Shown here: in pieces, positions 6,300 through 20,185 of the stretch
Layout: each line of letters opens with the position of its first letter
Position numbering within the stretch: position 1 is the stretch's first letter
Origin: a virus
Taxonomy: Duplodnaviria > Heunggongvirae > Uroviricota > Caudoviricetes
Virus record (IMG/VR): IMGVR_UViG_3300024272_001997
Strand: one strand, 5' to 3'
Length of the DNA stretch: 64,000 nt
The notes under the pieces: model-generated
Seen by the model: the letters and a program-made list of their open reading frames with translations, nothing else
Database searches by the model: none
Told to the model about the DNA's origin: nothing
Translations under genes and position numbers: made by a program

Positions 6300-6500
6300 A
6301 AGAACATTTTTACCGATCGGGACTTTCAATTCAATGTTTCGCCATATGAGAATTCCCGATCGGCCCTCCGGGGTGGGGTGCTAGATTTCGGGAGAACGGG
6401 GCATATGCGGAAGTCGCTAGAAGTAGCAGAAAAATTCCATATGGGGTATACCGATCGGAAAATCGGGCCCTGACCTCCGTTCAGGGCCCGTTGAACCACA
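6300..6500. ncRNA. ORF-less GC-rich segment apparently transcribed from both strands (minus class-1 promoter at 6506-6534, plus promoter at 6264-6293); contains CCGATCGG motifs and a 9-bp GC hairpin at 6467-6490
   Basis: No plausible ORF (6326..6517 begins inside the -10 element); hairpin GGGCCCTGAcctccgTTCAGGGCCC; CATATGG repeated. Confidence 0.3.
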
Positions 6501-6505
6501 CCCTT

Positions 6506-6534
6506 ATTATACCACAAGTCGAGGTATTTGTCAA
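6506..6534 (-). promoter_or_regulatory. class-1 consensus promoter TTGACA-17-TATAAT with no ORF downstream
   Basis: Reverse complement GGGGTTGACAaatacctcgacttgtggTATAATAAGGG. Confidence 0.6.
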
Positions 6535-6551
6535 CCCCTAAATCAAAAAAA

Positions 6552-6573
6552 AATCGACTGATTTCTCAGTCGA
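6552..6573 (-). terminator. terminator hairpin overlapping stop of gene 6566..6736
   Basis: ATCGACTGAgaaaTCAGTCGAT followed by TTTTTTTTT on minus strand. Confidence 0.55.
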
Positions 6574-6736
6574 TTTCTAAACAGCCATCCCAATGGAAGT
6601 GCGCCGTCACATGGAGGCTTGCACCGCACTCGGGGCAGATTGTGTAGGAAGTGCCGGTGACAAAATCGCCGTTGTCTTCCAGATCGTCGAACTCGTCCAC
6701 ATCAAAGGACGCACCGCAGTAAGGACATTCACCCAT
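6566..6736 (-). CDS. zinc-ribbon protein (56 aa, CxxC...CxxC)
   Basis: GGAGGTATGAAAA RBS; MGECPYCGASFDVDEFDDLEDNGDFVTGTSYTICPECGASLHVTAHFHWDGCLEID; below track cut-off. Confidence 0.5.
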   Translation of the reverse strand: MGECPYCGASFDVDEFDDLEDNGDFVTGTSYTICPECGASLHVTAHFHWDGCLEID

Positions 6737-6749
6737 TTTTCATACCTCC

Positions 6750-6938
6750 TTAGCAATCATAGGTGTAGCAACCTTCGTAGGGGTCGAAGCCGAAGTCATC
6801 GTCAATGTCTTCGGGTTCGTAGTCATCGTCGTACTCACAGGGGGCGGGAGTGCCATCATCGGGATAGTGGCAACGGGGGTATTCTTCGTCCTCGTCCTTC
6901 CAGTAGTAACCGCAATTAGAATCAGCACAGGTAGCCAT
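6750..6938 (-). CDS. acidic Cys-containing protein (62 aa)
   Basis: Track ORF; GGAGGAAAAC RBS. Confidence 0.5.
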   Translation of the reverse strand: MATCADSNCGYYWKDEDEEYPRCHYPDDGTPAPCEYDDDYEPEDIDDDFGFDPYEGCYTYDC

Positions 6939-7015
6939 TTTGTTTTCCTCCTTGTTTGATTTTCTTTATTATACCATGTCGGGGGGCATTTGTCAAGCCC
7001 CCCGACAACTTTTTT

Positions 7016-7609
7016 TTAGAAAGGCAGTTCGTCTGCCAGTCCGGCAACCTCATTCCATTCCTCGACAATCGCAGGAATATCGATGAAAGGACGGCTTGCC
7101 ATGTAGTCCGCCATGTGGACACATCTGTCCACATTGGTAAAGGGTCTGTCCTCTTTCTCGGTAGACCACTGACCCATGTGAGCGCAGACAGCGTTCAGAA
7201 GCAGAAAATGGGGTTCGCCGTAACCAGTGACCAGACAGTAATCACGGAAAGCAGTCGCCGCATTTCTGGCGTGATTCTTGTACTCGGCCTTGTCGAAACC
7301 ATCCAGACCATACTTGACAGTATCGTGAATGATACAGGCGACAATGACGAAATCCTTGTATTCTTCCTTCATGTATGCGTAAGAACTCATGCGGAGCAGT
7401 TCTTCGGCGAACATGACAACCGCCTTGGTGTGGCGAACCAGACCGCCAACGCCCTGGGACATCTTGGGGTGATACTTGCCAGAACTGGAAGCACCGTCTG
7501 TCCAGAAGTAGTCGGGAACTCGGTCGATCAGGTATCCCTTGACCGCCATGCGGAGATCCTCGTCCAGGATGAGGGACAGTTCCCTCTCAAAAAGCTTGAT
7601 GTTCTTCAT
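7016..7609 (-). CDS. HD-domain phosphohydrolase (197 aa)
   Basis: Track ORF trimmed to Met preceded by GAGGAATTGATACCC; contains H...HD motif (GKYHP, IIHDTVKYG) typical of the HD superfamily. Confidence 0.7.
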   Translation of the reverse strand: MKNIKLFERELSLILDEDLRMAVKGYLIDRVPDYFWTDGASSSGKYHPKMSQGVGGLVRHTKAVVMFAEELLRMSSYAYMKEEYKDFVIVACIIHDTVKYGLDGFDKAEYKNHARNAATAFRDYCLVTGYGEPHFLLLNAVCAHMGQWSTEKEDRPFTNVDRCVHMADYMASRPFIDIPAIVEEWNEVAGLADELPF

Positions 7610-7656
7610 GGGTATCAATTCCTCTCTCATTTGATGTACTCATTATAGCATAGGAT

Positions 7657-7833
7657 TTAGAGTTTGTCAAGTACTTTTTTAGAAAATTCTGTGTATTCAA
7701 TACACATTTTCAAAGTATCTTTTTCAACTGTCACACGCACAGAACTAACAAGGGGATTTTGTATCATCAGTTCGCCGGCCATTTTCTTGACCTCTGAATA
7801 GGGGATACCCTTACCAATTTCAATTCTAGCCAT
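7657..7833 (-). CDS. hypothetical protein (58 aa)
   Basis: Track ORF trimmed to Met with GGAGGG RBS. Confidence 0.45.
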   Translation of the reverse strand: MARIEIGKGIPYSEVKKMAGELMIQNPLVSSVRVTVEKDTLKMCIEYTEFSKKVLDKL

Positions 7834-7857
7834 TGTTTTTCCCTCCATGGTTCTGGG

Positions 7858-8028
7858 TTACCCCAGAACCACAAAATTTTTGCCGTAGTGGTCGTGAACG
7901 CCTTCTTCTACATTGTAGGTGATGGACAGTTCATCCATGTAAATGACCTTGGAATCACCAAAACCGAGTTCTTCCATGGTCTGAAGCTGGCGGAGCAGTT
8001 CACTAACAGTAATGCACTTTTTATTCAT
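7858..8028 (-). CDS. hypothetical protein (56 aa)
   Basis: GAGGAGGTAACC RBS; MNKKCITVSELLRQLQTMEELGFGDSKVIYMDELSITYNVEEGVHDHYGKNFVVLG; below track cut-off. Confidence 0.45.
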   Translation of the reverse strand: MNKKCITVSELLRQLQTMEELGFGDSKVIYMDELSITYNVEEGVHDHYGKNFVVLG

Positions 8029-8149
8029 GGGGGTTACCTCCTCTTGATTTATAATACAATTATACCACCGATTCCGGGAAAATCAAGTTGGAGTATTGCA
8101 CAAAAAATGCGCCCCAAAAATTGTTGGAGTTGGTTATTTTGCCGAAAAA

Positions 8150-8236
8150 CCGGCCCGCGCGCACGTAAAGGGCCGGCCGAAATTTGTGCAAATTGCACAA
8201 AAACGAAGAAAAACCGGGATTTTTCCCGGTTTTTCT
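8150..8236 (+). ncRNA. degenerate copy of GC-hairpin/terminator cassette
   Basis: Hairpin CCGGCCC-13nt-GGGCCGG then GCCGAAATTTGTGCAAATTGCACAAAAA then bidirectional terminator AAACCGGGAtttttCCCGGTTT; upstream promoter degenerate. Confidence 0.25.
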
Positions 8237-8603
8237 AACTTTTTGCCTTTCTTTTTGCGATTAAAGTCAATTCGTAGGCATTTTCACCAATTTTGAAGCT
8301 AATTTGACGAGTTTTGTTGGTGATTTCCACTGAAACGTAGCCTTTTTCCGCTAAAAAGTGGGCGATTTCCGCAATTACAGCCTCTTTTTCCGGATTTTCG
8401 GTGGGTTTTCGTGCGGATTTGGTGGTTTTTGGCGATTTTGTGTCCGCATTAGCGTTTTTCATAGCCAGTTTGTGTGCTTCTGGACTCAAATCAAAGTCCA
8501 TTTGCTCTCCCCTGTCGATGCATTTATCATCGGCAAGAATGGCTTCGGCTTCGCTTCTGGAACACTTGAGAGAACGCATGATGCGTTCGATTTGGCTATC
8601 CAT
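8235..8603 (-). CDS. hypothetical protein (122 aa), paralog of 11293..11649; TAG is its stop codon
   Basis: Track ORF; shares N-terminal SR(S/E)EAIxLxD(D/E)DKxIDRGE motif with its paralog; stop codon TAG at 8235-8237 followed by the terminator. Confidence 0.6.
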   Translation of the reverse strand: MDSQIERIMRSLKCSRSEAEAILADDKCIDRGEQMDFDLSPEAHKLAMKNANADTKSPKTTKSARKPTENPEKEAVIAEIAHFLAEKGYVSVEITNKTRQISFKIGENAYELTLIAKRKAKS

Positions 8604-8702
8604 GGTGGTTGCCCCCTTTCCTTACTTAGTATAGCACATTTGGGGGGATTTGTCAAGAGGAAAGTTTGGGGGAGAATTTCTCCCCCTCTCCCCTCTCTCT
8701 GG

Positions 8703-9095
8703 TTAGACCAGAGAGAAGAAAGCCTTTCTCTTGTCCTCGGTTCTCTTGACCTGGCCTGCATCAACCATCTGGCGAACCAGAGCGGACATTCTCTGGTTGG
8801 TCATGGTGTCAGGCAGGTTGGGAACCTTTTTCAGCAGTTCGGACACGGTGAACAGCTGATTGGGATTGGCTTCCATCACAGCCAGAACACCGGCCTTGAT
8901 GGTTGCGTTGGCTTCCTGCTGAGCGGTGGGCTTCTTCTCAGCGGAGTTCTTCTTGGCCAGCAGTTCCTGCTCGTGGGCGATGAACTCAGCCAGCATGGGG
9001 TTGTTGGCGACTTCGGGGATGTTCGCAATCATAGCGAACTTCTGAGCCTTGGTCAGCTTGGTGGATGCGGAAGCGGAAGAAGTAGTGTTAGCCAT
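8703..9095 (-). CDS. putative winged-helix protein (130 aa), paralog of 11729..12106
   Basis: Track ORF; about 70 percent identity to paralog over whole length; GAAAGGAATTGATACT-ATG leader. Confidence 0.65.
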   Translation of the reverse strand: MANTTSSASASTKLTKAQKFAMIANIPEVANNPMLAEFIAHEQELLAKKNSAEKKPTAQQEANATIKAGVLAVMEANPNQLFTVSELLKKVPNLPDTMTNQRMSALVRQMVDAGQVKRTEDKRKAFFSLV

Positions 9096-9366
9096 AGTAT
9101 CAATTCCTTTCGGTTTTAGCGACTTGAACCTGTCGATGATTTATTCTGTAAGAGGTGTTCCTCTTTACATTCTTATTATAGCACATTCGGCTCGGTTTGT
9201 CAAGAACTTTTTTTCTTTTTTTTTCTTGACCTTGGAGGGTTGCCCCTCTCTTTTTGTACCCTCATTGTATCACATCTTGGGCGGTTTGTCAAGAGGTTTT
9301 TTCAACTTTTTTTTTCGCTCGGCTCGCTCTGTCCTGCGTTGTTGCCTGTCCCTCACTGACAAGGGT

Positions 9367-9395
9367 ATTATACCATAGCCAGAAGCGGATTGCAA
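9367..9395 (-). promoter_or_regulatory. orphan promoter TTGCAA-17-TATAAT, back-to-back with plus promoter at 9454
   Basis: Reverse complement TTGCAAtccgcttctggctatggTATAAT; no ORF downstream before next promoter. Confidence 0.45.
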
Positions 9396-9453
9396 TAGGC
9401 AAAGTATACAAAATCGGGAGAAATAATTTGTGCATTTTTTTCGCATTTTCCTC

Positions 9454-9482
9454 TTGACAAATTGCTGGGGGTATGGTATAAT
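9454..9482 (+). promoter_or_regulatory. orphan consensus promoter CCTCTTGACAAA-17-TATAAT on plus strand
   Basis: TTGACAaattgctgggggtatggTATAAT; fires toward 3' end of the convergent gene 9569..10006. Confidence 0.65.
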
Positions 9483-9488
9483 GGAAAT

Positions 9489-9576
9489 TCTGCCCGGGCA
9501 CACTCGCGCCCGGGCCGCCGAAATGTCAATTGGTAATTTTGCACAAAAAAGTGAGGGTTGCCCCTCACTCATTTTT
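9489..9576 (+). ncRNA. candidate small RNA: 5' GC hairpin GCCCGGGC-acactcgc-GCCCGGGC plus terminator hairpin GTGAGGGttgcCCCTCAC-tcaTTTTT
   Basis: Starts about 7 nt after -10, ends at intrinsic terminator that also terminates the minus gene; no ORF. Confidence 0.35.
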
Positions 9577-10006
9577 GAATGACCGTTTCCAGATTGATTC
9601 CGGCGCTGACTTCTTCCCAGTTCTCCACATTGTCAACATGGACAACCTTGTGACAGCCATTGACCATCATCAGAGAATAGGTTGCGTTCTCATAACCGCA
9701 CAGAACCTGGACAACCTCTTTGCCGATTGCCATGCCGAAGCCGGCTTCCCATGCCGTACCAGAGTCGGAATACATACCGAAGTTGAGAACCATGACCACA
9801 TCACAGTCATGGATGGCTTCAATGTCCATTTCAAAGACACGCTTTGCCCAGTCAGAGTTCGGCAAGTCCCATGCGTTGGGAACTTCATGCTCCTGGGGTA
9901 CATGAACCGGATAACCTGCGGAGCGCAGACGAGAGATGGTTTCCTTGTAGACTACCAATTCAGTAGCATTGAAGAACGGCGAAGCCAGATAGATTTTCTT
10001 TTTCAT
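9569..10006 (-). CDS. nucleoside 2-deoxyribosyltransferase-like protein (145 aa)
   Basis: Track ORF trimmed to Met after GGAAAGGAACTGAACACT; KIYLASPFF...MVLNFGMYSDSGTAWEAGFGMAIGKEVV matches the NDT/Rcl family signature. Confidence 0.65.
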   Translation of the reverse strand: MKKKIYLASPFFNATELVVYKETISRLRSAGYPVHVPQEHEVPNAWDLPNSDWAKRVFEMDIEAIHDCDVVMVLNFGMYSDSGTAWEAGFGMAIGKEVVQVLCGYENATYSLMMVNGCHKVVHVDNVENWEEVSAGINLETVIQK

Positions 10007-10062
10007 AGTGTTCAGTTCCTTTCCTTTTTGTATTCTCATTATACCATGAGAAAAGGCTTTTG

Positions 10063-10398
10063 TCAAGCCTTTTCTACTCGGTAGAAGAAAAATTTATTGA
10101 CAATTCTTTTTGCCTTTTTGTCGTGGCAAAAATAAATACTTCCGAACAGATGTGTGGAATCGTCCATCAATTTGAGATTTTGAATTGCTTCCAATTTCAC
10201 AGGCTTGCTTACATTGCGGAAGAGTTTCCAGAAGAAAACGAATGGGAAAAGCAGGATTTCCAGAATAATTTCCAGAATACCAGTGATGAGCAGATAGGGA
10301 AGCTGGATGAAGTTCATCCATCTCTGGCCCCACAGTTCTTCGTGAATGAAAGACAGGATAATGTATCCGGCAAGAATACCTAATAAGAAATTCAACAT
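10063..10398 (-). CDS. membrane protein (111 aa)
   Basis: Track ORF trimmed to Met with GAGGTG RBS; two TM helices. Confidence 0.5.
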   Translation of the reverse strand: MLNFLLGILAGYIILSFIHEELWGQRWMNFIQLPYLLITGILEIILEILLFPFVFFWKLFRNVSKPVKLEAIQNLKLMDDSTHLFGSIYFCHDKKAKRIVNKFFFYRVEKA

Positions 10399-10462
10399 TT
10401 TACACACCTCATTTGTTTTTCTTTATTATAGCATGAATTGGGGGTTTTGTCAACCCCCAATT

Positions 10463-10771
10463 TTACGGAAGTTCATCGGGATAGCAGAAGCATTCCCATG
10501 CGATACTCTCCCAAGTTTCCATACACTTGGAAGTGTTGCACAGCCAGATCGTGACAAAGAAAGTATTGACAACAGGCAGACCAATCATCAAAGCGCACTG
10601 GATGAGACTGATGAAAGTCTTTGCCCAGTTCGTAGGCTGTTTGACCCTGACCATGCCCTTGGCCTTGCACTCCTTAAAAGTGGGAATCATAGCCAGACTG
10701 GCGAACACGAACAGATACAGGAAAGCCAGAATTGCGCTTGCGACATAGACCCAGAAGAAAATTTCTAACAT
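10463..10771 (-). CDS. membrane protein (102 aa)
   Basis: Track ORF trimmed to Met with GAGGT RBS; 3 hydrophobic helices. Confidence 0.5.
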   Translation of the reverse strand: MLEIFFWVYVASAILAFLYLFVFASLAMIPTFKECKAKGMVRVKQPTNWAKTFISLIQCALMIGLPVVNTFFVTIWLCNTSKCMETWESIAWECFCYPDELP

Positions 10772-10843
10772 AACATTTACCTCACTCATTTAATTTTCTT
10801 TATTATAACATAGGTTTGCGAATTTGTCAAGAGTTATTTTGTA

Positions 10844-11056
10844 TCAAAGGGACATTTTCTGTCCCCAGATACAACGCTCAAAGGCAGGCTTGTAGACATT
10901 GTTCCAAATGAACTCCATCTCGTTGTAAGCTTCTCTGTCCTCCACAATCATTGCGTAGAACTGAACTGCTCCGAACGCCTGATGAATCCACAGTTCTTTG
11001 CCGTCCTTCTGGCACTGAGCCAAAAGCCAATCGATGTGCTGTTTCAGTTTATCCAT
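10844..11056 (-). CDS. hypothetical protein (70 aa)
   Basis: Track ORF trimmed to Met after AGGAGGTAATCACC; upstream Mets lie in promoter. Confidence 0.5.
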   Translation of the reverse strand: MDKLKQHIDWLLAQCQKDGKELWIHQAFGAVQFYAMIVEDREAYNEMEFIWNNVYKPAFERCIWGQKMSL

Positions 11057-11175
11057 GGTGATTACCTCCTTGATTTGTACCCTAATTATAGCATAGGTTT
11101 CGGGATTTGTCAAGGGGTTTTGCAAAAATAATTTTTGCAAGAAAAATTGCTGAAATAGGGGGTTAGTAGCGAAAT

Positions 11176-11234
11176 GCCGGGCGCCACACTCGTCAGCGCC
11201 CGGCCATTATACCACATTCTTTTGAAAATGTCAA
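11176..11234 (-). promoter_or_regulatory. class-1 promoter immediately abutting GC hairpin GCCGGGCGC-cacactcgtca-GCGCCCGGC (inverted-orientation copy of the cassette)
   Basis: TTGACAttttcaaaagaatgtggTATAAT then hairpin 1 nt later; no terminator follows. Confidence 0.4.
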
Positions 11235-11263
11235 GCATTATTTTTTCGTCAAAATGCACAAAA

Positions 11264-11294
11264 AATCTGTCCGCGCTGGGCGGACAGATTTCTC
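11264..11294 (-). terminator. terminator for gene 11293..11649
   Basis: TCTGTCCGCccagcGCGGACAGA followed by TTTTTTGTGC on minus strand. Confidence 0.55.
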
Positions 11295-11649
11295 AGGAGC
11301 GGGGACACGCAAGGGTGACTTTGTACTTCGTGCCGTTGTGGGTGAACAGGAACTCACGCTCGGCATTGGTGACATTGAACTCGGTGATTCCCAGTCCATT
11401 CAGACCTTCCATCATTGCGGAACACAGCTCTGCCTTTTCCGGCTTGGCTTTCTTCTCTCTTTTGGTGGTGGTCTGCTTGCGGTCTGCCTGTCGTGCTTTC
11501 TTTGCGCCCGCTTCCAGTTCGGGGTCAAGCTCAAACAACTTTTCGCCCCTGTCGATTCGCTTGTCTTCGTCCATCAGTTCGATGGCTTCCTCACGGCTGA
11601 TGTTCAGCGACTTCATCAGCTTCTGGATTTTCTCTTCCATCGGGGTCAT
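11293..11649 (-). CDS. hypothetical protein (118 aa), paralog of 8235..8603
   Basis: Track ORF. Confidence 0.6.
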   Translation of the reverse strand: MTPMEEKIQKLMKSLNISREEAIELMDEDKRIDRGEKLFELDPELEAGAKKARQADRKQTTTKREKKAKPEKAELCSAMMEGLNGLGITEFNVTNAEREFLFTHNGTKYKVTLACPRS

Positions 11650-11728
11650 CTCCTTTCTGTACTAAGTATAGCACAGATTGCTGGATTTGTCAAGGGGAAA
11701 TTTTGGGGGAGTTTCCTCCCCCATCGGG

Positions 11729-12106
11729 TTACGCAATGGCGAAGAACGCCTTGCGCTTGTCCTCGGAGCGGACAACCTGACCCGCATCGACCATCTGACG
11801 GACGAGTGCGCTCATGCGCTGATTGGTCATGGTGTCGGGCAGACCGGGCACTTCCTTGAGCAGTTCGGACACGGTGCGCTTCTTGCCGTCAGCCAGAACC
11901 TCCAGAACGGCGGTCTTGATTACGGCATTTGCCTCCTGCTGGGCAGTGGGCTTCTTGTCGGCGGAGTTCTTCTTTGCCAGAAGCTCAACTTCGTGGGCGA
12001 TGAACTCGGACAGCATGGGGTCAGCCTTGACGGCGGGCAGTTCAGCCAGAATGGCGAACTTCTGAGCCTTGGTCAGACGAGCGGAAGAAGAAGTAGTGTT
12101 AGCCAT
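11729..12106 (-). CDS. putative winged-helix protein (125 aa), paralog of 8703..9095
   Basis: Track ORF trimmed to MANTTSS... matching its paralog's start. Confidence 0.65.
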   Translation of the reverse strand: MANTTSSSARLTKAQKFAILAELPAVKADPMLSEFIAHEVELLAKKNSADKKPTAQQEANAVIKTAVLEVLADGKKRTVSELLKEVPGLPDTMTNQRMSALVRQMVDAGQVVRSEDKRKAFFAIA

Positions 12107-12284
12107 AGTATCGATCTCCAATCTTGCGGTAGGTCGCAACCCAAATTTGATTTATCTGTAAGAGGTGTTCCTCTTTACATTCTTATTGTATCACATCTTG
12201 AGCCAGTTGTCAAGAGGTTTTTTGAATTTTTTTTTGGCTTTCACTCCACCTAGTCCCTAATACAGCCTCGGGATTGGTTCACAT

Positions 12285-12380
12285 TTATATTCCGCACAAC
12301 GGAGCGACCGTGCGGTCGAGGACTTTGTCGTCATGGTCTGACACGACTCTCGTGGGTCTTGTCTCAACGACTTCTGCCAT
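12285..12380 (-). CDS. possible micro-protein (31 aa)
   Basis: Sits 17 nt downstream of a class-1 promoter with the conserved leader GGGTACAAAAGAGGGAAGC-ATG; MAEVVETRPTRVVSDHDDKVLDRTVAPLCGI. Confidence 0.25.
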   Translation of the reverse strand: MAEVVETRPTRVVSDHDDKVLDRTVAPLCGI

Positions 12381-12689
12381 GCTTCCCTCTTTTGTACCCT
12401 TATTATAACACATCTTGGGGAGTTTGTCAAGAGGTTTTTTTTCAGATTTCCTTCTGTTCGGTCATCTTGTGGTCACTTGCTCCGCAAGCCCTACCGCCTC
12501 CGACCACGGCTAACCTCTTGACTTCTCTTACATTGTATCACAACTTGGGGGATTTGTCAAGGGGTTTCTTGAAGTTTCTTCAAGAAAGTTGCGTGCCGGA
12601 AGGTTGGGTCGTACACAGCCTCTGCCAACAGTTCGACGCCTAGCGTGGGTTTCCCAACTCCCGAGGCGTTCCCTCCCCTTGACACCAAT

Positions 12690-12805: not shown

Positions 12806-12811
12806 TAAAAT

Positions 12812-13405: not shown

Positions 13406-14077
13406 TTACTCCGCCCACTTGGGGAAACACTTGTTGTATTCCTTGCCCTTGGCATCCCAGCAATGCACATTCTTGGTGAACTTCTTGTGTGTCCGCAGAC
13501 AGCGGACAAAAATCTGCATTTCAATCATGGCATCAGCCAGAGCCGTGTGTTCCTCGATGAAGTCGGGGTCGTTAGTGATGAACGCATACACGGCTTCCGC
13601 AGTGGTCGCACAAGTGTTCTTGCTTCTGGACTGGAAGCCATTTGCACGGCAAAACTTGGCATAGCCTTTCTGGTGGCAGATGGTCTGGGTTGCCATCAAC
13701 CAAAGGTCGATGAACTCGAACTCCTCAGCCAACGCACGGCAGGCAGTTTTGGTAAGGTCGAAAGCGGAATTGTAAGCACAGATGTACTTGACGCCGTAGA
13801 AGTGGCACAGATTGGAAACAATGCTGACTGCCTCGGCTTCGGTAGTCACCGCAGACATTTCACCGCTTGCCAGTCTCTTGGCATAGATGGGGAAGTTCTT
13901 CTTGGCATAGTCATCGTTGCGGATTTCCTCATAGTGTTCCATCACCAGAAGATTGGTGGTTGCGAAGATGTTACCCTCTCTGTCATGGATGGTACAGCCG
14001 ACATTGTACATTCCGGAGGGAGTGGAAGCACCGCCTACAGTCTCGGTGTCCAGAGTACAGAAAATTGTCTTATTCAT
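13406..14077 (-). CDS. DEDDh (DnaQ-like) 3'-5' exonuclease (223 aa)
   Basis: Track ORF trimmed to Met after AAAGGAAAGGAATTGATACCA; Exo I FCTLDTETVG, Exo II YNSAFDL, Exo III HTALADA. Confidence 0.75.
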   Translation of the reverse strand: MNKTIFCTLDTETVGGASTPSGMYNVGCTIHDREGNIFATTNLLVMEHYEEIRNDDYAKKNFPIYAKRLASGEMSAVTTEAEAVSIVSNLCHFYGVKYICAYNSAFDLTKTACRALAEEFEFIDLWLMATQTICHQKGYAKFCRANGFQSRSKNTCATTAEAVYAFITNDPDFIEEHTALADAMIEMQIFVRCLRTHKKFTKNVHCWDAKGKEYNKCFPKWAE

Positions 14078-14145
14078 TGGTATCAATTCCTTTCCTTTGA
14101 TGAACTTATTGTATCACAAAATAGCCGGTTTGTCAAGGGATTTTT

Positions 14146-14595
14146 TTAGAATCCCTGACACATTTTTTCCAGCTTCGCCCAGTTGACGGAGAAGACATTG
14201 CGGAAACCCTCAAACTCCATCTCGGCGTAGTCCATGAAGTTCCGCAGTTCAGAGTAGCAGGGCAGATGGCCATCGAACCGCAGACCGAACTCACGAGCCA
14301 GCTTCTTGCACCACAGTTCATCCAACTGGTCTTCGGTGAACTTCTCGTGGGTCTTGGGGTTGATAACCACACGGACTTCCTTGTGGTAGGTAGTCTTCTC
14401 AGTGCGGACGACCTGCACCAGACCATACTCCCGGGCAGTTTCCAGACAGACGGAAGCGGAATAGGGATAGCGACCATCGGAGAAGCGGTCACGAACCTCA
14501 TTGAACTGCTTCTTGGTGAACTCAACAGGCAGAGCCTTGAAGGTTTCACGAGTCTTGGGAGCCAGTGCCATCATAGAAGAGAAATTGTGTGCCAT
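14146..14595 (-). CDS. hypothetical protein (149 aa)
   Basis: Track ORF preceded by class-1 promoter at about 14660-14688. Confidence 0.6.
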   Translation of the reverse strand: MAHNFSSMMALAPKTRETFKALPVEFTKKQFNEVRDRFSDGRYPYSASVCLETAREYGLVQVVRTEKTTYHKEVRVVINPKTHEKFTEDQLDELWCKKLAREFGLRFDGHLPCYSELRNFMDYAEMEFEGFRNVFSVNWAKLEKMCQGF

Positions 14596-14969
14596 AATAT
14601 TTTACCTCATTTCATTTATTTGGTGGGGCTTACCATCGTTTCCCTCACCTTGTATTTGTATTATAGCATAGATTGTTTGGTTTGTCAAGAGGTTTTCTCA
14701 AAAAATTCCGGACTTTTTTGATTATCTCCGATACTTCTTGCCTCAAAAGACCTGTTTTAGATTGTTGCCCCAGCTCATTCCTTGTACCCTCGGGCAAGGA
14801 CTATGTCAGTCCGCAACTTCTCTCTTTCCGCTTTCTCTTGGCGATTTTCTCCGTCGAGGTTCCCCTCTTGACACAGTCATTGTACCACAGATTTTGGGAT
14901 TTGTCAACTCGTTAAAATACACAAATAATCGCCGAAAATAAATGCCTAGGTTGGTTATTGTGCCAAATT

Positions 14970-15058
14970 CGGCGCGCCTGGACCGTGGGCGCGCCGCCGA
15001 ACTTTTGTGCAAAATGACGAAAAATCCCTTTCCATTTCTGGAAAGGGATTCCAAAATC
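14970..15058 (+). ncRNA. degenerate hairpin/terminator cassette
   Basis: CGGCGCGCC-tggaccgtg-GGCGCGCCG then GCCGAAC...; terminator ATCCCTTTCCAtttcTGGAAAGGGAT; upstream promoter weak (TATTGT -10). Confidence 0.25.
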
Positions 15059-15428
15059 AAATCACATTGAAAAGGACAATCTTTTCGGGAATGTCCTTCC
15101 ACTCGTTCCGACCGACCTGGATGCGGAGGGTGCGTCCGGTGATGAACTCAGTGCGCTGGACTGCGCCGACCTTGACCAGCTTCCGCACATTCTGAGAAAT
15201 CAGCTGAACAGTGGGAGCATGATACTCGGGGTTGTACTTCTCCATCGGGTAGCCGTAAGACTCCCATCTCTTTCTGCCGACTACCTCGGCAATCTGTGTG
15301 GCAGTAGCACCGCACTCGCCGAAACCAGATAAGGCGCTCAGAATGTCGGACAGGTACTTGTATCTTTTTCGGTTCTCACGGGTAGAACACTCAGCGACAG
15401 CAACATGGGCAAGATTAGGATTATTCAT
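15057..15428 (-). CDS. putative winged-helix DNA-binding protein (123 aa)
   Basis: Track ORF; GATATQIAEVVG...LVKVGAVQRTEF pattern; GAAAGGAATTGATACT-ATG leader. Confidence 0.55.
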   Translation of the reverse strand: MNNPNLAHVAVAECSTRENRKRYKYLSDILSALSGFGECGATATQIAEVVGRKRWESYGYPMEKYNPEYHAPTVQLISQNVRKLVKVGAVQRTEFITGRTLRIQVGRNEWKDIPEKIVLFNVI

Positions 15429-15503
15429 AGTATCAATTCCTTTCAGTTCTCTTTTGTTGTAATTATTGTATCATAGGTTTTCGGATTTGTCAAGAGGAAA
15501 TTC

Positions 15504-15944
15504 TCAGATTTCTCTGAGAATTTCCATGATGTTCTGTACATCGTGGGGGATGCCAGTCCATCCAGTTCTGTTCCGTTCCTCATCATCGAACAGAATGTCG
15601 AGAGGGGTTCGGCAGAACATTTCCTTAGGAGTGCCATAGGGAACGATGTTGATTTCATCCCAATGGACGGAGGGCAGATGTTCCGCAAGCCAGACCTTTT
15701 TGACTTCGGTAACTCTTGCGTTGTACTCTTTGCTTCCGCTCTTGGAAGTCCAGGAGATAACGGAGAGCCGATAGCCTTGCTTCTGGAGTGCGTTCAGCTT
15801 GCGAGCCAGAGCGGAGAGGTTCAGCAGAGGTTTTGCGATTGCGTAGGGAGTGGTATCTTCAGCTTCCAGATAGGGGAGCCAGTTCTTGACACCGTAGAGG
15901 TCAGCGATTGTGCCGTCCATGTCGAAGTTAATTGTAACAGTCAT
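15504..15944 (-). CDS. HAD-superfamily 5'(3')-deoxyribonucleotidase-like protein (146 aa)
   Basis: Track ORF; N-terminal FDMDGTIADL (DxDGT motif I); size and motifs fit the NT5C family. Confidence 0.65.
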   Translation of the reverse strand: MTVTINFDMDGTIADLYGVKNWLPYLEAEDTTPYAIAKPLLNLSALARKLNALQKQGYRLSVISWTSKSGSKEYNARVTEVKKVWLAEHLPSVHWDEINIVPYGTPKEMFCRTPLDILFDDEERNRTGWTGIPHDVQNIMEILREI

Positions 15945-15994
15945 TTGATTCAGTTCCTTTCCTTTTTTGTACCTTAATTATAACACGGAATACC

Positions 15995-16195
15995 TCATTT
16001 GTCAAGAGGTATTCCAACAATTTTTCTGATTTCTTCATCTTTTTTGTAGTGTGTGAAAGACTTGTCAAAGCAACATTCCACGATCCACAAATCATCTCCG
16101 GTGGAGTAGTTCACGACTTTCCACATTGTACCATGTTCGGGGAACACCAGACCGCACCGCACATGAGTCAGGGATCTACATTTAATTTTATCCAT
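15995..16195 (-). CDS. hypothetical protein (66 aa)
   Basis: Track ORF; AAGAGGTGAGATAA-ATG. Confidence 0.5.
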   Translation of the reverse strand: MDKIKCRSLTHVRCGLVFPEHGTMWKVVNYSTGDDLWIVECCFDKSFTHYKKDEEIRKIVGIPLDK

Positions 16196-16250
16196 TTATC
16201 TCACCTCTTGATTATTGTATCATAGTTTGGAGATTTTGTCAAGCCCTTTT

Positions 16251-16811
16251 TTAGTAGGGCTTGGCAACTCTCTTTGCTTCCTTGGGGTCAATCAGAACAC
16301 CAACAAAGCGGTCATTCAGCTGATAGGCTTCTTCATACTTGCCGATGAAATAAGCACGCATCCGACTTTCACAGGCGATTGTGGCGGAGAGGTTGTGGCA
16401 GGGTTCGCACATTACAACTTCAAGCCGAACTTTTGCACCTGCCAACTTTTCATACTCGGCGACTTCCTGCTGAAATCTTTCCTGCGGTTGTTCGCTTGTA
16501 CCAATCTTGCTTGCGTACAGCAGACCAGATTCCACAAAGTACACATGGAGCAGATAGCAAGCAGAGCCGAACACTTCCCGCACCTTCCAATCAATGTAAT
16601 GCTTGGTGTGGTTGGTTCTACCTCTTCCGCACTTAAAAGCGACCTTGTCTTTTTCCTTGACGGTGAACCGCTTCATCCATGCTTCATACTGATTTGCCTT
16701 GTAAGCGGTCAGAACTGCTTTCCATGCCTTCTGGATGTGTCCTGCGGACAAGCCTGCGTTCTTACGGCGATTGTATTCTTTTACCAGACCCTCAAAAATA
16801 ACCTCATTCAT
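16251..16811 (-). CDS. hypothetical protein (186 aa); weak GIY-YIG-like segment
   Basis: Track ORF trimmed to MNEVIFEGL with AAGAGGAACACAAA RBS; VYFVESGLLYASKIGTS...ERFQQE loosely resembles GIY-YIG. Confidence 0.55.
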   Translation of the reverse strand: MNEVIFEGLVKEYNRRKNAGLSAGHIQKAWKAVLTAYKANQYEAWMKRFTVKEKDKVAFKCGRGRTNHTKHYIDWKVREVFGSACYLLHVYFVESGLLYASKIGTSEQPQERFQQEVAEYEKLAGAKVRLEVVMCEPCHNLSATIACESRMRAYFIGKYEEAYQLNDRFVGVLIDPKEAKRVAKPY

Positions 16812-16930
16812 TTTGTGTTCCTCTTTCCGGGTTGCCCCTTGATTTATAAGCCTAGTATACACTATAAATCACGATTTGTCAAGCATTATTTTGGGATTTT
16901 TCAAAAAAAGTTTTTTGTGCAAATTGCCTA

Positions 16931-16959
16931 TTGACAAATTGGCTGGGCTGTGGTATAAT
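16931..16959 (+). promoter_or_regulatory. orphan consensus promoter on plus strand
   Basis: TTGACAaattggctgggctgtggTATAAT. Confidence 0.6.
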
Positions 16960-16965
16960 GGAAAT

Positions 16966-17030
16966 AACGCGCCGGCTGGGTCGTGGGCGGCGCGCCGAAA
17001 AATAAAGTGAGAATTTCTTCTCACTTTACA
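16966..17030 (+). ncRNA. candidate small RNA: hairpin CGCGCCG-13nt-CGGCGCG then CCGAAAAA then terminator AAGTGAGAAtttcTTCTCACTT
   Basis: Third intact copy of the cassette. Confidence 0.3.
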
Positions 17031-17208
17031 GCTTGGTTCCAGAAGGTGACCGGAAAATCATTTCAGTTTTCTTGTATGTGATTTCTGCGGTGGCTCCGCA
17101 ACCACATTTGAATTTGCGATACAGCTGATGGGAAGTTTCTCCCTCGTAAACTACCTTGAACTGTGCGGTGCTTCCGCAATTAGGACATCTCTCAACCATT
17201 ATTATCAT
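17026..17208 (-). CDS. zinc-ribbon protein (60 aa)
   Basis: Track ORF trimmed to Met downstream of TSS; CPNCG...CGCG. Confidence 0.5.
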   Translation of the reverse strand: MIIMVERCPNCGSTAQFKVVYEGETSHQLYRKFKCGCGATAEITYKKTEMIFRSPSGTKL

Positions 17209-17255
17209 TTCCTTTCCTTTTGTTGTACTTATTATACCATGTAATTGGGGATTTG

Positions 17256-17534
17256 TCAATCCCCAATTTCACAACATTCGTAAGTATTTTGCGGGATGAT
17301 GCAGTCCATCACATCAAACTTCTGTGCGTTGCCATGAATGAGATAGACATGAGCATTGGGAAACTCCCTCTGAATGTCTTCCAGATAATTGTAGAAGCCA
17401 TTACACAGTTGTTCAAACCGTTCCTGTCTTTCGTCAATGCGTTCCTCGCACATCTGAGCGAGTGCCCGCAACTGTTCTTTGTTCATGTTTTTGACATTGT
17501 CGCAGAGGTCTGCGAATCTAACTGGATTCAACAT
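17256..17534 (-). CDS. hypothetical protein (92 aa)
   Basis: Track ORF trimmed to Met after AAAGGAGAATGATACC. Confidence 0.55.
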   Translation of the reverse strand: MLNPVRFADLCDNVKNMNKEQLRALAQMCEERIDERQERFEQLCNGFYNYLEDIQREFPNAHVYLIHGNAQKFDVMDCIIPQNTYECCEIGD

Positions 17535-17539
17535 GGTAT

Positions 17540-17686
17540 CATTCTCCTTTCTTGAACTTCTGGCGATTGTATCGCTTGCCACTTTCTACCTTGCTTCCTC
17601 TCTTGCGGAAGTTCAGCCACTGCTGAAGTTCTTCGCCCTCTTTCTTGAATACTCGGCGATCCAGTTCCTTTTTCTTCTTTGCCATT
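17540..17686 (-). CDS. small basic protein (48 aa, Lys/Arg-rich)
   Basis: AAGGAGTTGACAACA-ATG; MAKKKKELDRRVFKKEGEELQQWLNFRKRGSKVESGKRYNRQKFKKGE; below track cut-off; class-1 promoter at about 17716-17744. Confidence 0.45.
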
Positions 17687-17763
17687 GTTGTCAACTCCTT
17701 TGTTTTTCTATAAATATTATAACATACTTTTTATTTATTGTCAAGGGGAATTTTTCATTCCCC

Positions 17764-18078
17764 TTACATTCTCAGCAGAAACGCATACTTTTCATTGTTC
17801 TTGCGGACTCTGTTCTTCAATGCCACAGGCATCTTTTCATTGTAGTAGAAGGAAGAAACCTGAGCCATCGTTCCCATGTATCCGGTGATGAGGGTATCAT
17901 CCTTGACTACCAAAATGATTCCGGTATCAGTCAGCTTTCTGGTTGCGTATTCGCCATGCCGGTAGCTTGTCTGTTCTCTGATGATTTCATTGAATCCCAG
18001 ATGTTGGATGCAAGCGGTGAGTCTGTCAATCCGTTCTTCCTTAGCGTGGTAGGTCATTTCAAATCTCATAGTAGCCAT
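17764..18078 (-). CDS. hypothetical protein (104 aa)
   Basis: Track ORF; AAAGGAGATAAAAACA-ATG. Confidence 0.55.
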   Translation of the reverse strand: MATMRFEMTYHAKEERIDRLTACIQHLGFNEIIREQTSYRHGEYATRKLTDTGIILVVKDDTLITGYMGTMAQVSSFYYNEKMPVALKNRVRKNNEKYAFLLRM

Positions 18079-18164
18079 TGTTTTTATCTCCTTTTGTTTT
18101 CCTTTTTTGTACCTTTATTATAACATGAGTTTCGGGATTTGTCAAGGGGTTTTTTATTTATTTT

Positions 18165-18344
18165 TCAAAACCCCATCAGACAGAACAGAATCATAACAAC
18201 CAGACCTGTGAGGGTCAGACCCAAGGCCGCAAGGAAGTTTTCAAACATTTGCTTGTAATTCTTGCGATTGTCCACAGGACACCAGTCTGCGTAATAGATG
18301 TTCCGGCAGATGCGGAAGCGGATGTATTTGAACAGTTTCTTCAT
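18165..18344 (-). CDS. small membrane protein (59 aa)
   Basis: Track ORF trimmed to Met after AGAGGAG; C-terminal TM helix. Confidence 0.45.
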   Translation of the reverse strand: MKKLFKYIRFRICRNIYYADWCPVDNRKNYKQMFENFLAALGLTLTGLVVMILFCLMGF

Positions 18345-18411
18345 GGCTCTTGGCTCCTCTCTTTTGTTGTCTTCATTATAACACAAAAGAGGCTTGTTGT
18401 CAAGCCCCTTT

Positions 18412-18687
18412 TTAGAAAATTCTAATAATTTCATCGTCGTAAATGTCATTTGTACCCATGTCATCAAACTCAATCCAGACCTGCTGCCCCAGTTCGAAGG
18501 ATTCTCCCTCTTCCAGTTCCCAGACCCAGACCTCGCCAGAAGCATCCTCAAAAGCAACAGCCTCTGCATTGACTTCGCACACAGTAGCACTTACTTCATT
18601 AGCATCACTGTAGAGACAGTCTACGAGCATCCATCCGCACACCATAGCCAGAGCCAGCATTCCTACGCACAGTACTTTTCTAATCAT
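18412..18687 (-). CDS. secreted/membrane-anchored acidic protein (91 aa)
   Basis: Track ORF trimmed to Met after GAAGGAGATAATGACA; N-terminal hydrophobic signal. Confidence 0.5.
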   Translation of the reverse strand: MIRKVLCVGMLALAMVCGWMLVDCLYSDANEVSATVCEVNAEAVAFEDASGEVWVWELEEGESFELGQQVWIEFDDMGTNDIYDDEIIRIF

Positions 18688-18851
18688 TGTCATTATCTCC
18701 TTCGTTGTTTGTACCTGTATTGTATCATGAATTATGGGATTTGTCAATCGTCAAAATACACAAAAGAATTGCGTTTTTTATTTGCTGAGTTGTGCATTTC
18801 GCCGAAGTCTAGGCAGGTGGCGGTCGTGTGCGGAGACAAGTAAAGGTCTGC

Positions 18852-19070
18852 TTATTTGCAGACCTTCATGATTAGTCTCTCATAGCTTAGTCCTGCCACA
18901 GCACACAGAGACCGCAGGTTCTCTTTGACGTACAGCTTCTCTGCATAGGCAAGTGTGCCCTTCGGCTTGTCCATCATGCGCATGATGTAGTTGTACTGAT
19001 AGGTCTCGCGCAGGCTAGGCTTGCGCTCTGTGATGATGTCGAGCATCTTGTTGATGGCTGTCTTGTTCAT
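18852..19070 (-). CDS. hypothetical protein (72 aa)
   Basis: Track ORF; AAAGGAGGCACACACA-ATG. Confidence 0.5.
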   Translation of the reverse strand: MNKTAINKMLDIITERKPSLRETYQYNYIMRMMDKPKGTLAYAEKLYVKENLRSLCAVAGLSYERLIMKVCK

Positions 19071-19083
19071 TGTGTGTGCCTCC

Positions 19084-19251
19084 TTTACTTGATGGTGATG
19101 GTGGTGTGCTTGGTGTACTTGCTAGTCTTTACATCTACGATGGTATCCTGGTAGGCTCTGTTGCTGATGCTGTGGAACTCTACGGTGGTGTTCTTGTCTT
19201 CTACCTTGTTCAGCAGAGCGATCAGTTCAGCGACGGTCATGGTGTTCTTCA
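19084..19251 (-). CDS. hypothetical protein (55 aa)
   Basis: GTAAAGGAGATACACACT-ATG; MKNTMTVAELIALLNKVEDKNTTVEFHSISNRAYQDTIVDVKTSKYTKHTTITIK; below track cut-off. Confidence 0.4.
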
Positions 19252-19424
19252 TAGTGTGTATCTCCTTTACTCTTGGGTTGTGTCCCTCTCTCTTTGTGTC
19301 TTTATTATAACATTACAGGAGTTATTTGTCAAGCTTTTTTTTATTATTTTACACACTTTTTTTTCTACAGCCTAGCCCTACGGGCCAGTTAGGGAGCCTG
19401 TGGGTCGTGGTCGGTGGCTACTCC

Positions 19425-19796
19425 TTACAGAGTAGCCATTACCTTAGCAAGCTCTTCAGTACTCATGCTCTTGTAGTGTTCCATGATAGCCTTGAGCATC
19501 TTGTTGCGCTTAGTCTCTTCTTCTCTCTCTGTGTTGCGCTGTGCTCTGTACTCGTCACGCTCAGCCTCTGTGTCGAACCACGTGTACTGTCCGTAGAGGT
19601 AGCCAACCTTCTTGCCCTGTGCGGTGTAGATGTTGATGATGCCTTTGTTGTTGTTGATGTACATGACCTCGGACCAACCACCTTCGTTGTGGATGTCATA
19701 GATGTTACGCTTGGGGATGTTGTGGGCTTCGATGTAGTCCTTGGTGTAGAGCTTCTGTCCGTTGATGTGGTACAGTTCGTTTACGTTGTGCATCAT
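19425..19796 (-). CDS. hypothetical protein (123 aa)
   Basis: Track ORF; AAAGGAGATAATCACT-ATG; class-1 promoter at about 19850-19878. Confidence 0.55.
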   Translation of the reverse strand: MMHNVNELYHINGQKLYTKDYIEAHNIPKRNIYDIHNEGGWSEVMYINNNKGIINIYTAQGKKVGYLYGQYTWFDTEAERDEYRAQRNTEREEETKRNKMLKAIMEHYKSMSTEELAKVMATL

Positions 19797-20185
19797 AGTG
19801 ATTATCTCCTTTACTTTGTGAGGTGTGTTCCTCTGTTTTTTGTAGCTTTATTATAACACACGGGTGAGAGTTTGTCAAGGGGTTTTAGGAAATTTTTTTA
19901 TTATTTTTTTTCTTTGGAATGTGGCAAAATTTTCTCGAACCTCTCAAGATAACGCAAAATCGGCTCTGCGCGCACGTCGCCGAGCCGAGCAATTAGGGGG
20001 TGCTTTGTAGGGGGTGGGTATCTGTCATGTGTCAGAGAGTTTAGAGACATGGACAATAGACTCTGTATTTTCTGCCGGATGAAAAACCGGGGGTGTATTT
20101 CGGGAAAAACTTTTTTTTCGATAGGCCAAAACTTTTGCGCTGGGCAATACAATCTTGAAATCAATTTTCAATTTCGGAATACGAT

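Follow-up and report, generated by a model that had tools for sequence, protein, structure and literature searches.

Comparison with described early-gene cassettes

In the hyperplastic regions of T4-type phages, ORFan genes are separated by promoter-early-stem-loop (PeSL) elements, each consisting of an A/T tract, a G...C stem-loop, a near-consensus sigma-70 promoter with a 17-nt spacer (N17), a Shine-Dalgarno (SD) sequence and an ATG, and the indels and replacements that distinguish related phages have their junctions inside these elements (PMC4122927, PMC2839356). Further traits ascribed to PeSL elements are effective transcription termination by the stem-loop and mini-circles that arise when neighbouring elements recombine. 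PeSL systems have been described for RB49/phi1, PST/T4 and nt-1/KVP40 (Arbiol et al., 2010, PMC2839356; Comeau et al., 2014, PMC4122927). Another close counterpart is the host-takeover module of phage SPO1, which lies in a terminal part of its genome and whose products shut off processes of the host. The module has 26 small early genes in 12.4 kb and promoters and ribosome-binding sites (RBS) typical of highly expressed genes (PMC6873191). Here we analyze an array of about 30 promoter-leader units that precede small leftward genes between 6.5 and 19.9 kb of a 64,000-nucleotide stretch, hereafter the window, from IMG/VR virus record IMGVR_UViG_3300024272_001997 (Caudoviricetes). The array is a genuine, statistically overwhelming set of strong early expression cassettes. 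We consider it likely that it represents an early region of the host-takeover type in a large, uncultured gut phage and that its self-contained cassettes undergo PeSL-like modular turnover.

Both strands of the window were searched with the regular expression TTGAC[AT]-N16-18-TA[TC]A[ACG]T. Exactly 30 minus-strand sites were found between 6506 and 19878, confirming the number of units given in the original prediction, which had been made from the sequence alone. Only three plus-strand sites lie inside the same region (9454, 12777, 16931), and the other 50 kb contain one minus-strand and four plus-strand sites. A separate consensus scanner, applied to 5.5-20.5 kb, found 33 sites with at least 11/12 hexamer matches and 56 sites with at least 9/12, compared with 18.6 +/- 4.1 of the latter in shuffled sequences. 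Allowing up to two mismatches, CCTCTTGACAAA was matched 25 times, where 8.0 +/- 2.6 matches would be expected.

The architecture of these units is that of PeSL elements. The promoters are near-consensus TTGACA-N17-TATAAT, with a spacer of exactly 17 bp in all 30 units and two perfect hexamers (12/12) in 19; the 20 nt upstream are rich in A and T (76% A+T versus 53% for the region); a stem-loop encloses the -35 box in six units and adjoins it in at least five more; and an SD sequence and a start codon form the 3' end. As with PeSL elements, the surrounding genes are small ORFans (a Pfam search of the 30 array proteins gave no match for 25), gene content and order vary among relatives, and junctions between the window and its relative L143, as well as between the relatives L012 and L047, fall within the elements, without enrichment over an intergenic-only null. 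Unlike in the known PeSL systems, the phage is not a T4-like myovirus but belongs to an unrelated lineage with TAG-recoded late genes, the promoters are of the extended -10 type (TRTGn), the leader is a long anti-16S complement, the six enclosed -35 boxes lie inside the hairpin loop and not downstream of the stem, and the density reaches about one promoter per gene over 13 kb. The proposed likeness to PeSL therefore holds for architecture, ORFan setting and junctions at the elements, but the phage is not T4-like, so the array can only be an analogue. Judged by this comparison, it appears to work like PeSL without being a member of that set.

With the SPO1 module the array shares small early genes, mostly of unknown function, promoters and RBS of the highly expressed type and, presumably, promoters read by the host sigma-A polymerase. 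It differs in having about twice as many promoters per gene, and no homology of its proteins to SPO1 proteins was seen. The Pfam matches gave no homology informative about a shut-off of host processes, and the ends of the phage genome lie outside the window. Stewart et al., in 1998, are said to have described the SPO1 module as 12 operons driven by early promoters PE1-PE12. We know of no description of cassette turnover at SPO1 promoters.

A further comparison is offered by Bacillus phage vB_BanS-Tsamsa (KC481682), a large siphovirus in culture; its relatives and the window phage have a portal/prohead-like protein in common. Like the array, its early region contains a series of same-strand TTGACA-N17-TAtAaT promoters (21 in ~31 kb). 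The flanks of these promoters (cgcTTGACAAGAG) are conserved as well, and a (G)TA(C)AACAA start region and a GGAGATG SD are also part of the units. Unlike the array, they reach a density of only 0.7 per kb, serve multi-gene operons and have a different flanking consensus. Promoters are not mentioned in the Tsamsa genome paper. The first 50 kb of phAss-1 contain only four such promoters, so that the array is not shared with this phage, at least in that part.

Arrays of this kind are already known; the phage lineage is undescribed and TAG-recoded. The PeSL idea, in which promoter/terminator units serve as gene-shuffling seams, has so far concerned T4-type phages of Gram-negative hosts and is extended here to large gut phages of an unrelated lineage that is uncultured and stop-codon-recoded and has signals of the Gram-positive type. 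Notable traits of the array are the provision of nearly every gene with a promoter, the invariant 17-bp/TGn geometry and the hairpins with the -35 box in the loop.

Anatomy of the promoter units

A TG dinucleotide occupies positions -15/-14 in 29/30 units and the full TRTG is present in 20/30, which together with the invariant spacer is the geometry of a Gram-positive extended -10 (TRTGn) sigma-A promoter. TTGACAAA was found in 26/30 units and a C at -36 in 25/30. The A/T tract, the 17-bp spacer and the TGn of the original description were all recovered, but the spacer is not GC-rich as had been stated: its mean GC content is 41% versus ~47% regionally, and only a C-rich patch, ATCCC, is seen in roughly half the units.

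The units had also been called near-identical, which overstates their similarity. Over 84 nt, pairwise identity averages 49% and reaches 75% at most, compared with 25% for random sequences, and outside the polymerase-contact positions it is only 37-40%. Information content peaks at the upstream A tract, at the -35 box with its AAA extension, at TRTG and at the -10 box, with a further, weak peak at a start region resembling GTACAA. The UP element and the sites of sigma regions 4, 3 and 2 are the known contact points of the sigma-70/sigma-A holoenzyme. Since the conserved positions, apart from the start region, coincide with known RNA polymerase contacts and with the SD, selection for maximal expression explains most of the similarity, and the view that it goes far beyond the needs of sigma-70 is not borne out. 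A few promoter pairs ahead of unrelated genes do share more than the consensus predicts. A mobile repeat similar to a miniature inverted-repeat transposable element (MITE) was considered and rejected on account of the low average identity of the units and because a reading of the sequence revealed no terminal repeats.

Gene calls were taken from an identical public contig (L055), and each gene was then assigned to a promoter. The array genes were numbered g01-g30, and 29 of them lie within 6.5-19.9 kb. Contrary to the claim that every gene is preceded by a unit, 24 of these 29 genes have a strict promoter of their own; g03, g08, g26 and g29 are second cistrons, and g25 has a weaker promoter (10/12). 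The distance from the -10 box to the ATG is mostly 24-38 nt. Conversely, six strict promoters stand ahead of no called ORF (14907, 12560, 12430, 11234, 9292, 6534), several of them stacked in tandem ahead of g17 and g23, which are paralogous genes.

Leaders and array genes

With up to three mismatches, GGAAAGGAATTGATAC occurs in seven copies, all on the minus strand and 1-4 nt ahead of an ATG. The chance expectation is 0.87, and none of 100 shuffles reached seven. Two or three looser copies exist besides, so that the shared leader reported earlier was recovered in 7-10 genes (GGAAAGGAAyTGAtAC). This leader is predicted to pair bipartitely with the 3' tail of 16S rRNA (GAUCACCUCCUUUCU), through GAAAGGA and TGAT across a 2x2 internal loop (dG ~-13 kcal/mol), and SD pairing of -9 to -15.6 kcal/mol was calculated for 29/30 genes. 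Other array genes have AAGGAGGT- or AAAGGAGAT-type leaders. By its predicted pairing, the shared leader is an extended SD sequence. The SP82 polypurine stabiliser and the cryIIIA STAB-SD are 5' stabiliser SD elements of Gram-positive mRNAs. The leader resembles them in its polypurine GAAAGGA(G/A) near the 5' end of a short leader and in its long complementarity to the 16S 3' end, and differs in that it would be a functional SD at canonical spacing from the ATG.

Pfam matches were obtained for five array proteins: an HD domain, a nucleoside 2-deoxyribosyltransferase, an NT5C-like nucleotidase, a weak AlkZ-like match (g17) and a zinc ribbon (g29). The g15 protein has no Pfam match; some of its homologues are named 'DNA polymerase III epsilon subunit-like protein' in the JGI annotation. 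For the HD-domain protein g27, the public call starts at 7630, inside the conserved leader. The true start is probably the ATG at 7609, directly after GAGAGGAATTGATACCC, in agreement with an ENA call of 197 aa.

The array contains one segmental duplication of the promoter-gene-promoter type (8615-9224 versus 11652-12235, 74% identity). The gene pair concerned, composed of g17/g23 (~125-130 aa) and g18/g24 (~115-122 aa), is present twice in the window (8235-9095 and 11293-12106), and ahead of each copy stand stacked promoters and a long leader in which a 5' hairpin can form. The g17-g18 pair is found in 2-3 copies in relatives (L001, L002, L003, L029, L039).

Cassette turnover between relatives

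Relatives in IMG/VR, with 65-77% nucleotide identity in shared genes, have the same promoter arrays at ~2 promoters per kb, and such arrays were found in dozens of related contigs. The relatives yielded 354 distinct units, 86% of them with TG, and 614 of 641 regular-expression hits had a 17-bp spacer. Many array proteins are conserved in these relatives, and gene content is mosaic and in places permuted, as in L003/L010, where the order is g15-g12-g07 versus g07...g12...g15 in the window.

Closer, intermediate relatives were drawn from the 90% cluster of g15. L143 lies on an ENA contig of 178.6 kb; in the blocks that it shares with the window, nucleotide identity is 84-98%. Four others (L145-L148) were obtained from ENA metagenome assemblies, with a pig-gut label on at least two, and each of L145 and L146 has 42-43 promoters in ~20 kb.

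The alignment of the window with L143 showed several differences. Between g06 and g07, L143 has an additional 123-aa cassette with a promoter unit on either side. The single promoter of the window at this position (17744) is identical to the left unit of L143 through the -10 box and the start region and changes over to the right unit within the A-rich leader. In place of the g10 cassette, L143 has an unrelated gene, with identity stopping right after TTGACAAAT of promoter 16882 and resuming 3-4 nt before the -35 box of promoter 16242. Genes g02-g04 correspond to five small ORFs in L143, from 21 nt past the -10 box of promoter 19332 to the exact ATG of g05, and the g05 homologue of L143 is left without a promoter of its own. 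Two further replacements extend from the g19 ATG to 21 nt upstream of promoter 10453 (g19-g20) and from the weak promoter 8086 to 9 nt upstream of promoter 7670 (g25-g26). A comparison between two more distant relatives gave a similar picture: L047 has two additional cassettes relative to L012 (92-93% identity), and the switch occurs exactly at TTGACAA. Gene turnover thus runs cassette by cassette, and the proposal that related genomes would gain or lose genes precisely at cassette boundaries is supported by L143, with junctions at the -35 box, the leader or the ATG.

When all homology boundaries were counted, 12 of 20 in L143 fell into promoter-leader units, which make up 21% of the region (P = 1.5e-4), and 9 of 16 did so in L145 (P = 0.002). 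Between the window and distant relatives, 10 of 22 upper ends of high-scoring segment pairs (HSPs) were located within 25 nt of a -35 box, where 2.4 +/- 1.4 would be expected, and among the relatives 26 of 48 ends were near a -35 box versus 10 +/- 2.9 expected, the latter count including reciprocal pairs twice. Both counts share a weakness with those for L143 and L145, since the units make up most of the intergenic DNA. Judging from the junction alignments, the promoter units themselves are a plausible recombination substrate.

Hairpins, terminators and punctuation modules

For the analysis of hairpins, 77 nt around each -35 box were folded. A G/C hairpin encloses the -35 box in six units (18403, 17259, 16005, 10453, 10066, 6996), and in at least five more a hairpin ends at the box or within 2 nt of it (18145, 17744, 16242, 15493, 14136). 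Several other units have hairpins further upstream, and about a third show no evident stem. Among the relatives, 23/354 units have the -35 box in the loop, compared with 4.4 in controls pairing arms of different units. Most of the hairpins linked to a -35 box lack a U tract.

The canonical terminators are found in seven larger intergenic modules that align with each other as a repeat family and are composed of a terminator, a GC-rich hairpin after TTTCGGCG, a TTTGTG(C/T)A motif and a promoter. In three modules, a perfect antisense promoter is also present (9454-9570, 12777-12880, 16931-17030, plus strand). The predicted antisense RNA would consist of a GC-rich hairpin followed by (C)GCCGAAA and run into the terminator of the convergent gene. 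Related copies of this antisense module were noticed at 8130-8200, 14960-15010 and 11150-11234, and the antisense hairpin is kept in L002, L003, L013, L016 and L030 with different, still complementary stems. Rfam gave no match at gathering thresholds, and at E-values up to 1 only sub-threshold matches on terminators, so that the promoter-only transcripts fit no known RNA family.

The motif TTGTGCA/TGCACAA has 11 copies, none of them outside 8.1-19.8 kb and nearly all located in the larger intergenic modules, with sites including 8103-8217, 9428, 9546, 11261, 12761, 15005, 16915 and 18790. It occurs once as a near-perfect palindrome, TTGTGCAATTTGCACAA, at ~8200, and may be the operator of a regulator.

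Composition, genetic code and host

The GC content of the window changes abruptly around 20-22 kb, from ~47% in the early array (6000-20000) to ~34% in the late region (22000-64000), and the difference is mainly at third codon positions. The GC content at these positions (GC3) is 0.34-0.77 in array genes, with at least 0.45 in 27/30, and 0.16-0.49 in late genes. Among the latter, five sampled ORFs beyond 43 kb have values of 0.16-0.23, and the top values of 0.47-0.49 belong to two ORFs at 30.1-32.1 kb, which we take to be highly expressed capsid genes. The high GC3 of the array suggests codon selection for high expression, and the overall pattern suggests a codon choice that follows either the expression level or the code switch.

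Reading TAG as a sense codon on the plus strand of 22500-64000 raises the coverage by long ORFs from 76% to 97% and merges fragments into ORFs of 3129, 1866, 970, 967 and 724 codons. The longest (39284-48673) contains 36 in-frame TAG codons. The terminase gene (24840-26603) is read through four in-frame TAGs, and PHROG matches cross the TAG positions with E-values of 1e-38 to 9e-61 for one family and 3e-13 to 6e-50 for another; a Pfam search of the read-through terminase gave no match. The array genes have no in-frame TAG and end with TAA (17), TGA (12) or TAG (1), so that 29/30 use TAA or TGA. The late plus-strand half of the window is TAG-recoded and the array genes use the standard code, which makes the array the standard-code, host-readable part of a recoded phage. 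TAG recoding has been described for phAss-1 (PMC10607447), and UAG-to-Gln recoding is already known for gut phages (PMC10879173). ARAGORN detected no tRNA in the 64-kb window.

Megablast of the region against 50,697 phage records gave no match. At the protein level, a portal/prohead-like protein has its matches in human-gut phage contigs, in phAss-1 and in large siphoviruses of Bacillus, Lactococcus and Enterococcus; the terminase and portal-like proteins are similar to their counterparts in phAss-1 and large Firmicutes siphoviruses and are not T4-like. Promoters of the TTGACA/TATAAT type together with strong SDs speak against a Bacteroidota host and for a Firmicute, and the host is probably a Firmicute.

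Proposed function and alternative explanations

In the working model, a cassette would carry one small early gene, occasionally a pair, behind a UP-like tract rich in A and T, the extended -35 box cTTGACAAA, a spacer of exactly 17 bp that ends in T(A/G)TGn, and a TATAAT -10 box; a short A-rich leader, an extended SD pairing with up to ~13 nt of the 16S 3' tail, the ATG and a standard-code frame with GC-ending codons would complete it. At infection, unmodified host RNA polymerase would fire all ~30 promoters together and give rise to many short, efficiently translated mRNAs. Hairpins adjoining or enclosing the next -35 box would delimit transcripts within blocks, and the seven punctuation modules, each with a terminator and a GC hairpin and three with an antisense promoter, would part the blocks. 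Since each gene has its own promoter and ribosome site, cassettes could be gained, lost, duplicated or rearranged and still be expressed. With turnover by whole cassettes and junctions in the shared promoter or leader, the array behaves like T4-type PeSL cassettes. Early timing, recognition by host sigma-A and terminator activity are inferred here from sequence features.

If the model holds, the 30 units mark a standard-code early gene set, that is, the proteins made before the code switch, and these are good candidates for host-takeover or anti-defence functions. The units are predicted to be ready-made, very strong and compact promoter/RBS modules, and promoter arrays could flag early regions in related metagenomic contigs.

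Several observations weigh against this model, and some of them fit selection for expression as the only cause of the array. In that case the units would be alike because each has been driven to the optimum of host RNA polymerase and ribosome, breakpoints at cassette boundaries would arise because illegitimate recombinants that cut genes are lost, and the promoters would have no role in recombination. Conservation is indeed concentrated in known polymerase and ribosome contacts and drops elsewhere, and in Tsamsa a comparable set of promoters has flanks of another kind. Moreover, promoter-leader units make up 60% of all intergenic DNA, and the enrichment of breakpoints in units disappears when only intergenic positions are considered (10/17 in L143 and 8/14 in L145, P about 0.6-0.7). 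Recombination within promoters is therefore inseparable from the avoidance of gene disruption, and we do not claim promoters as recombination hot spots; of the suggested recombination-ready array, turnover at the cassette level stands, and a preference of breakpoints for the units over other intergenic DNA does not. The stretches common to different units are short (~8-30 nt, at the low overall identity given above), so that any recombination would take place at short or micro-homology. An indel between L040 and L047 lies in the 3' end of a gene, outside promoters, and carries none. On the other side, several junctions fall within a few bases of the shared -35 box or of the leader-ATG boundary, the indel between two promoter copies has left a hybrid promoter in the window, and some promoters of unrelated genes are alike beyond the consensus. 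We regard an explanation by expression alone as possible but rather unlikely. The cassette model is further weakened by the presence of only ~7 canonical intrinsic terminators on the minus strand, which would allow much read-through, and by the fact that timing, start sites and termination are all deduced from the DNA. More than 20 assemblies of the phage are 99.9-100% identical to the window and uninformative on gene-content variation or ongoing rearrangement. Homologues of the phage FolD protein were sought in 185,579 genomes, and the best matches were short, probably mis-binned phage contigs; cellular matches were a mixture of Firmicutes and Bacteroidales at 36-48% identity.

Other explanations assign the array a more specialized purpose. 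The GGGG...CCCC hairpins at the -35 box, or the whole unit, could be sites of a phage recombinase in an integron-like platform, an idea that the PeSL authors raised for their own GGGG...CCCC stems (PMC2839356) and that would agree with the family-wide excess of -35-enclosing hairpins and with the strongly different cassette content of relatives. Yet 24/30 units have no hairpin with the -35 box in the loop, the junctions vary between -35 box, initially transcribed sequence (ITS), leader and ATG with no one fixed site, and the Pfam search found no recombinase or integrase domain among the array proteins, which makes dedicated shuffling very improbable. A broader version would see a family-wide, purpose-built cassette platform that serves the early anti-host genes of TAG-recoded gut phages, a counterpart of integrons in which recombination prefers the promoter-leader units and above all the -35-in-loop hairpins, perhaps with the help of a phage protein, the modules insulate blocks, and exchange among co-infecting relatives is far faster than ordinary recombination; we mention it as a speculation with little chance of being correct. 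It is likewise improbable that the 30 or more consensus promoters mainly titrate host RNA polymerase off host genes, with the gene products being secondary. Six strict and three antisense promoters that drive no ORF and the tandem stacks upstream of g17 and g23 would suit such a sink, but 24 promoters are followed, at a short and fixed distance, by a strong SD and an ORF rich in GC-ending codons, and many array proteins are conserved in relatives. Finally, the abrupt GC change might indicate that a promoter segment of ~47% GC was mis-joined to a phage genome of ~34% GC during assembly. The junctions in question were recovered from JGI, ENA and Logan assemblies alike (99.9-100% identity), diverged relatives show the same layout and junctions, and third codon positions account for most of the difference; the chimera was rejected as the cause of the GC jump, its probability being negligible.

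Feature coordinates

Table 1. Promoters, intergenic modules and duplicated segments of the array. Promoter coordinates denote the core from -35 to -10 and are based on the regular expression, the consensus scan and the gene-to-promoter mapping.
Feature	Coordinates	Strand	Remarks
Gene block g01-g30	5693..19796	-	30 small leftward genes, 48-223 aa
Promoter g01 (19425-19796)	19850..19878	-	12/12 + TG; 53 nt from -10 to ATG
Promoter bicistron g02+g03	19304..19332	-	left junction of g02-g04 replacement versus L143 21 nt past -10
Promoter g04	18719..18747	-	11/12 + TG
Promoter g05	18375..18403	-	-35 within 12-bp hairpin; missing ahead of L143 g05 homologue
Promoter g06	18117..18145	-	hairpin adjoins -35
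Promoter bicistron g07+g08	17716..17744	-	hairpin adjoins -35; hybrid of two L143 units at one-cassette indel
Promoter g09	17231..17259	-	-35 in hairpin loop
Promoter g10	16854..16882	-	left junction of g10 replacement versus L143 right after TTGACAAAT
Promoter g11	16214..16242	-	hairpin adjoins -35; right g10-replacement junction 3-4 nt ahead of -35
Promoter g12	15977..16005	-	-35 in hairpin loop; contains g11 stop codon
Promoter g13	15465..15493	-	hairpin ends 2 nt ahead of -35
Promoter, no called ORF	14879..14907	-	~190 nt to next promoter
Promoter g14	14660..14688	-	64-nt leader with hairpin
Promoter g15	14108..14136	-	hairpin adjoins -35
Promoter g16	13339..13367	-	
Promoter, no called ORF	12532..12560	-	tandem set upstream of g17; L143 homology break exactly at -10 end
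Promoter, only 31-codon ORF after	12402..12430	-	tandem set upstream of g17
Promoter g17	12185..12213	-	78-nt leader with 5' hairpin
Promoter g18	11665..11693	-	
Promoter, GC-rich hairpin RNA (predicted), no ORF	11206..11234	-	
Promoter g19	11085..11113	-	
Promoter g20	10802..10830	-	
Promoter g21	10425..10453	-	-35 in hairpin loop
Promoter g22	10038..10066	-	-35 in hairpin loop
Promoter, no ORF	9264..9292	-	tandem set upstream of g23
Promoter g23	9175..9203	-	79-nt leader with 5' hairpin
Promoter g24	8628..8656	-	
Promoter g27 (HD-domain protein)	7642..7670	-	
Promoter bicistron g28+g29	6968..6996	-	-35 in hairpin loop
Last array promoter	6506..6534	-	followed by 345-nt ORF-free stretch with four CCGATCGG palindromes
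Weaker promoter g25+g26	8059..8086	-	10/12
Weaker promoter in module M6	9367..9395	-	10/12, TTGCAA
Weaker promoter in module M4	12690..12718	-	9/12
AT-rich-spacer promoter g30	6198..6226	-	10/12; like promoters at 22425, 22509, 38561, 48736
Antisense promoter, short GC-hairpin RNA (predicted)	9454..9482	+	12/12
Antisense promoter, short GC-hairpin RNA (predicted)	12777..12806	+	12/12
Antisense promoter, short GC-hairpin RNA (predicted)	16931..16959	+	12/12
Module M1	18715..18865	-	terminator region, TTTGTG(C/T)A motif, promoter; module alignment
Module M2	16850..17035	-	88-91% identical to relatives
Module M3	14875..15060	-	degenerate antisense promoter
Module M4	12685..12885	-	module alignment
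Module M5	11200..11300	-	hairpin unit inverted
Module M6	9360..9575	-	module alignment
Module M7	8055..8240	-	contains palindrome TTGTGCAATTTGCACAA
Segmental duplication copy 1	8615..9224	-	promoter, g23, promoter, start of g24
Segmental duplication copy 2	11652..12235	-	promoter, g17, promoter, start of g18

Neighbouring features

A lower-GC operon is located between the array and the late genes (20235-22022, minus strand). It encodes a FolD-like methylene-tetrahydrofolate (methylene-THF) dehydrogenase/cyclohydrolase, a MazE-like protein and a DUF7352 protein, and is predicted to be driven by the promoter at 22425. This promoter belongs to a second class with an A/T-rich spacer, TTGAC(A/T)...AAATTTTTnTGATATAAT, found at 22397-22425 (-), 22509-22537 (+), 38561-38589 (+), 48736-48764 (+) and 6198-6226 (-). 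The class includes a divergent pair at 22.4-22.5 kb, the early/late boundary, and its members may represent a different temporal class.

The palindrome CCGATCGG is present in four copies within 230 bp downstream of the last array promoter (6229-6458), with one more copy at 5515 and none elsewhere in the 64 kb.

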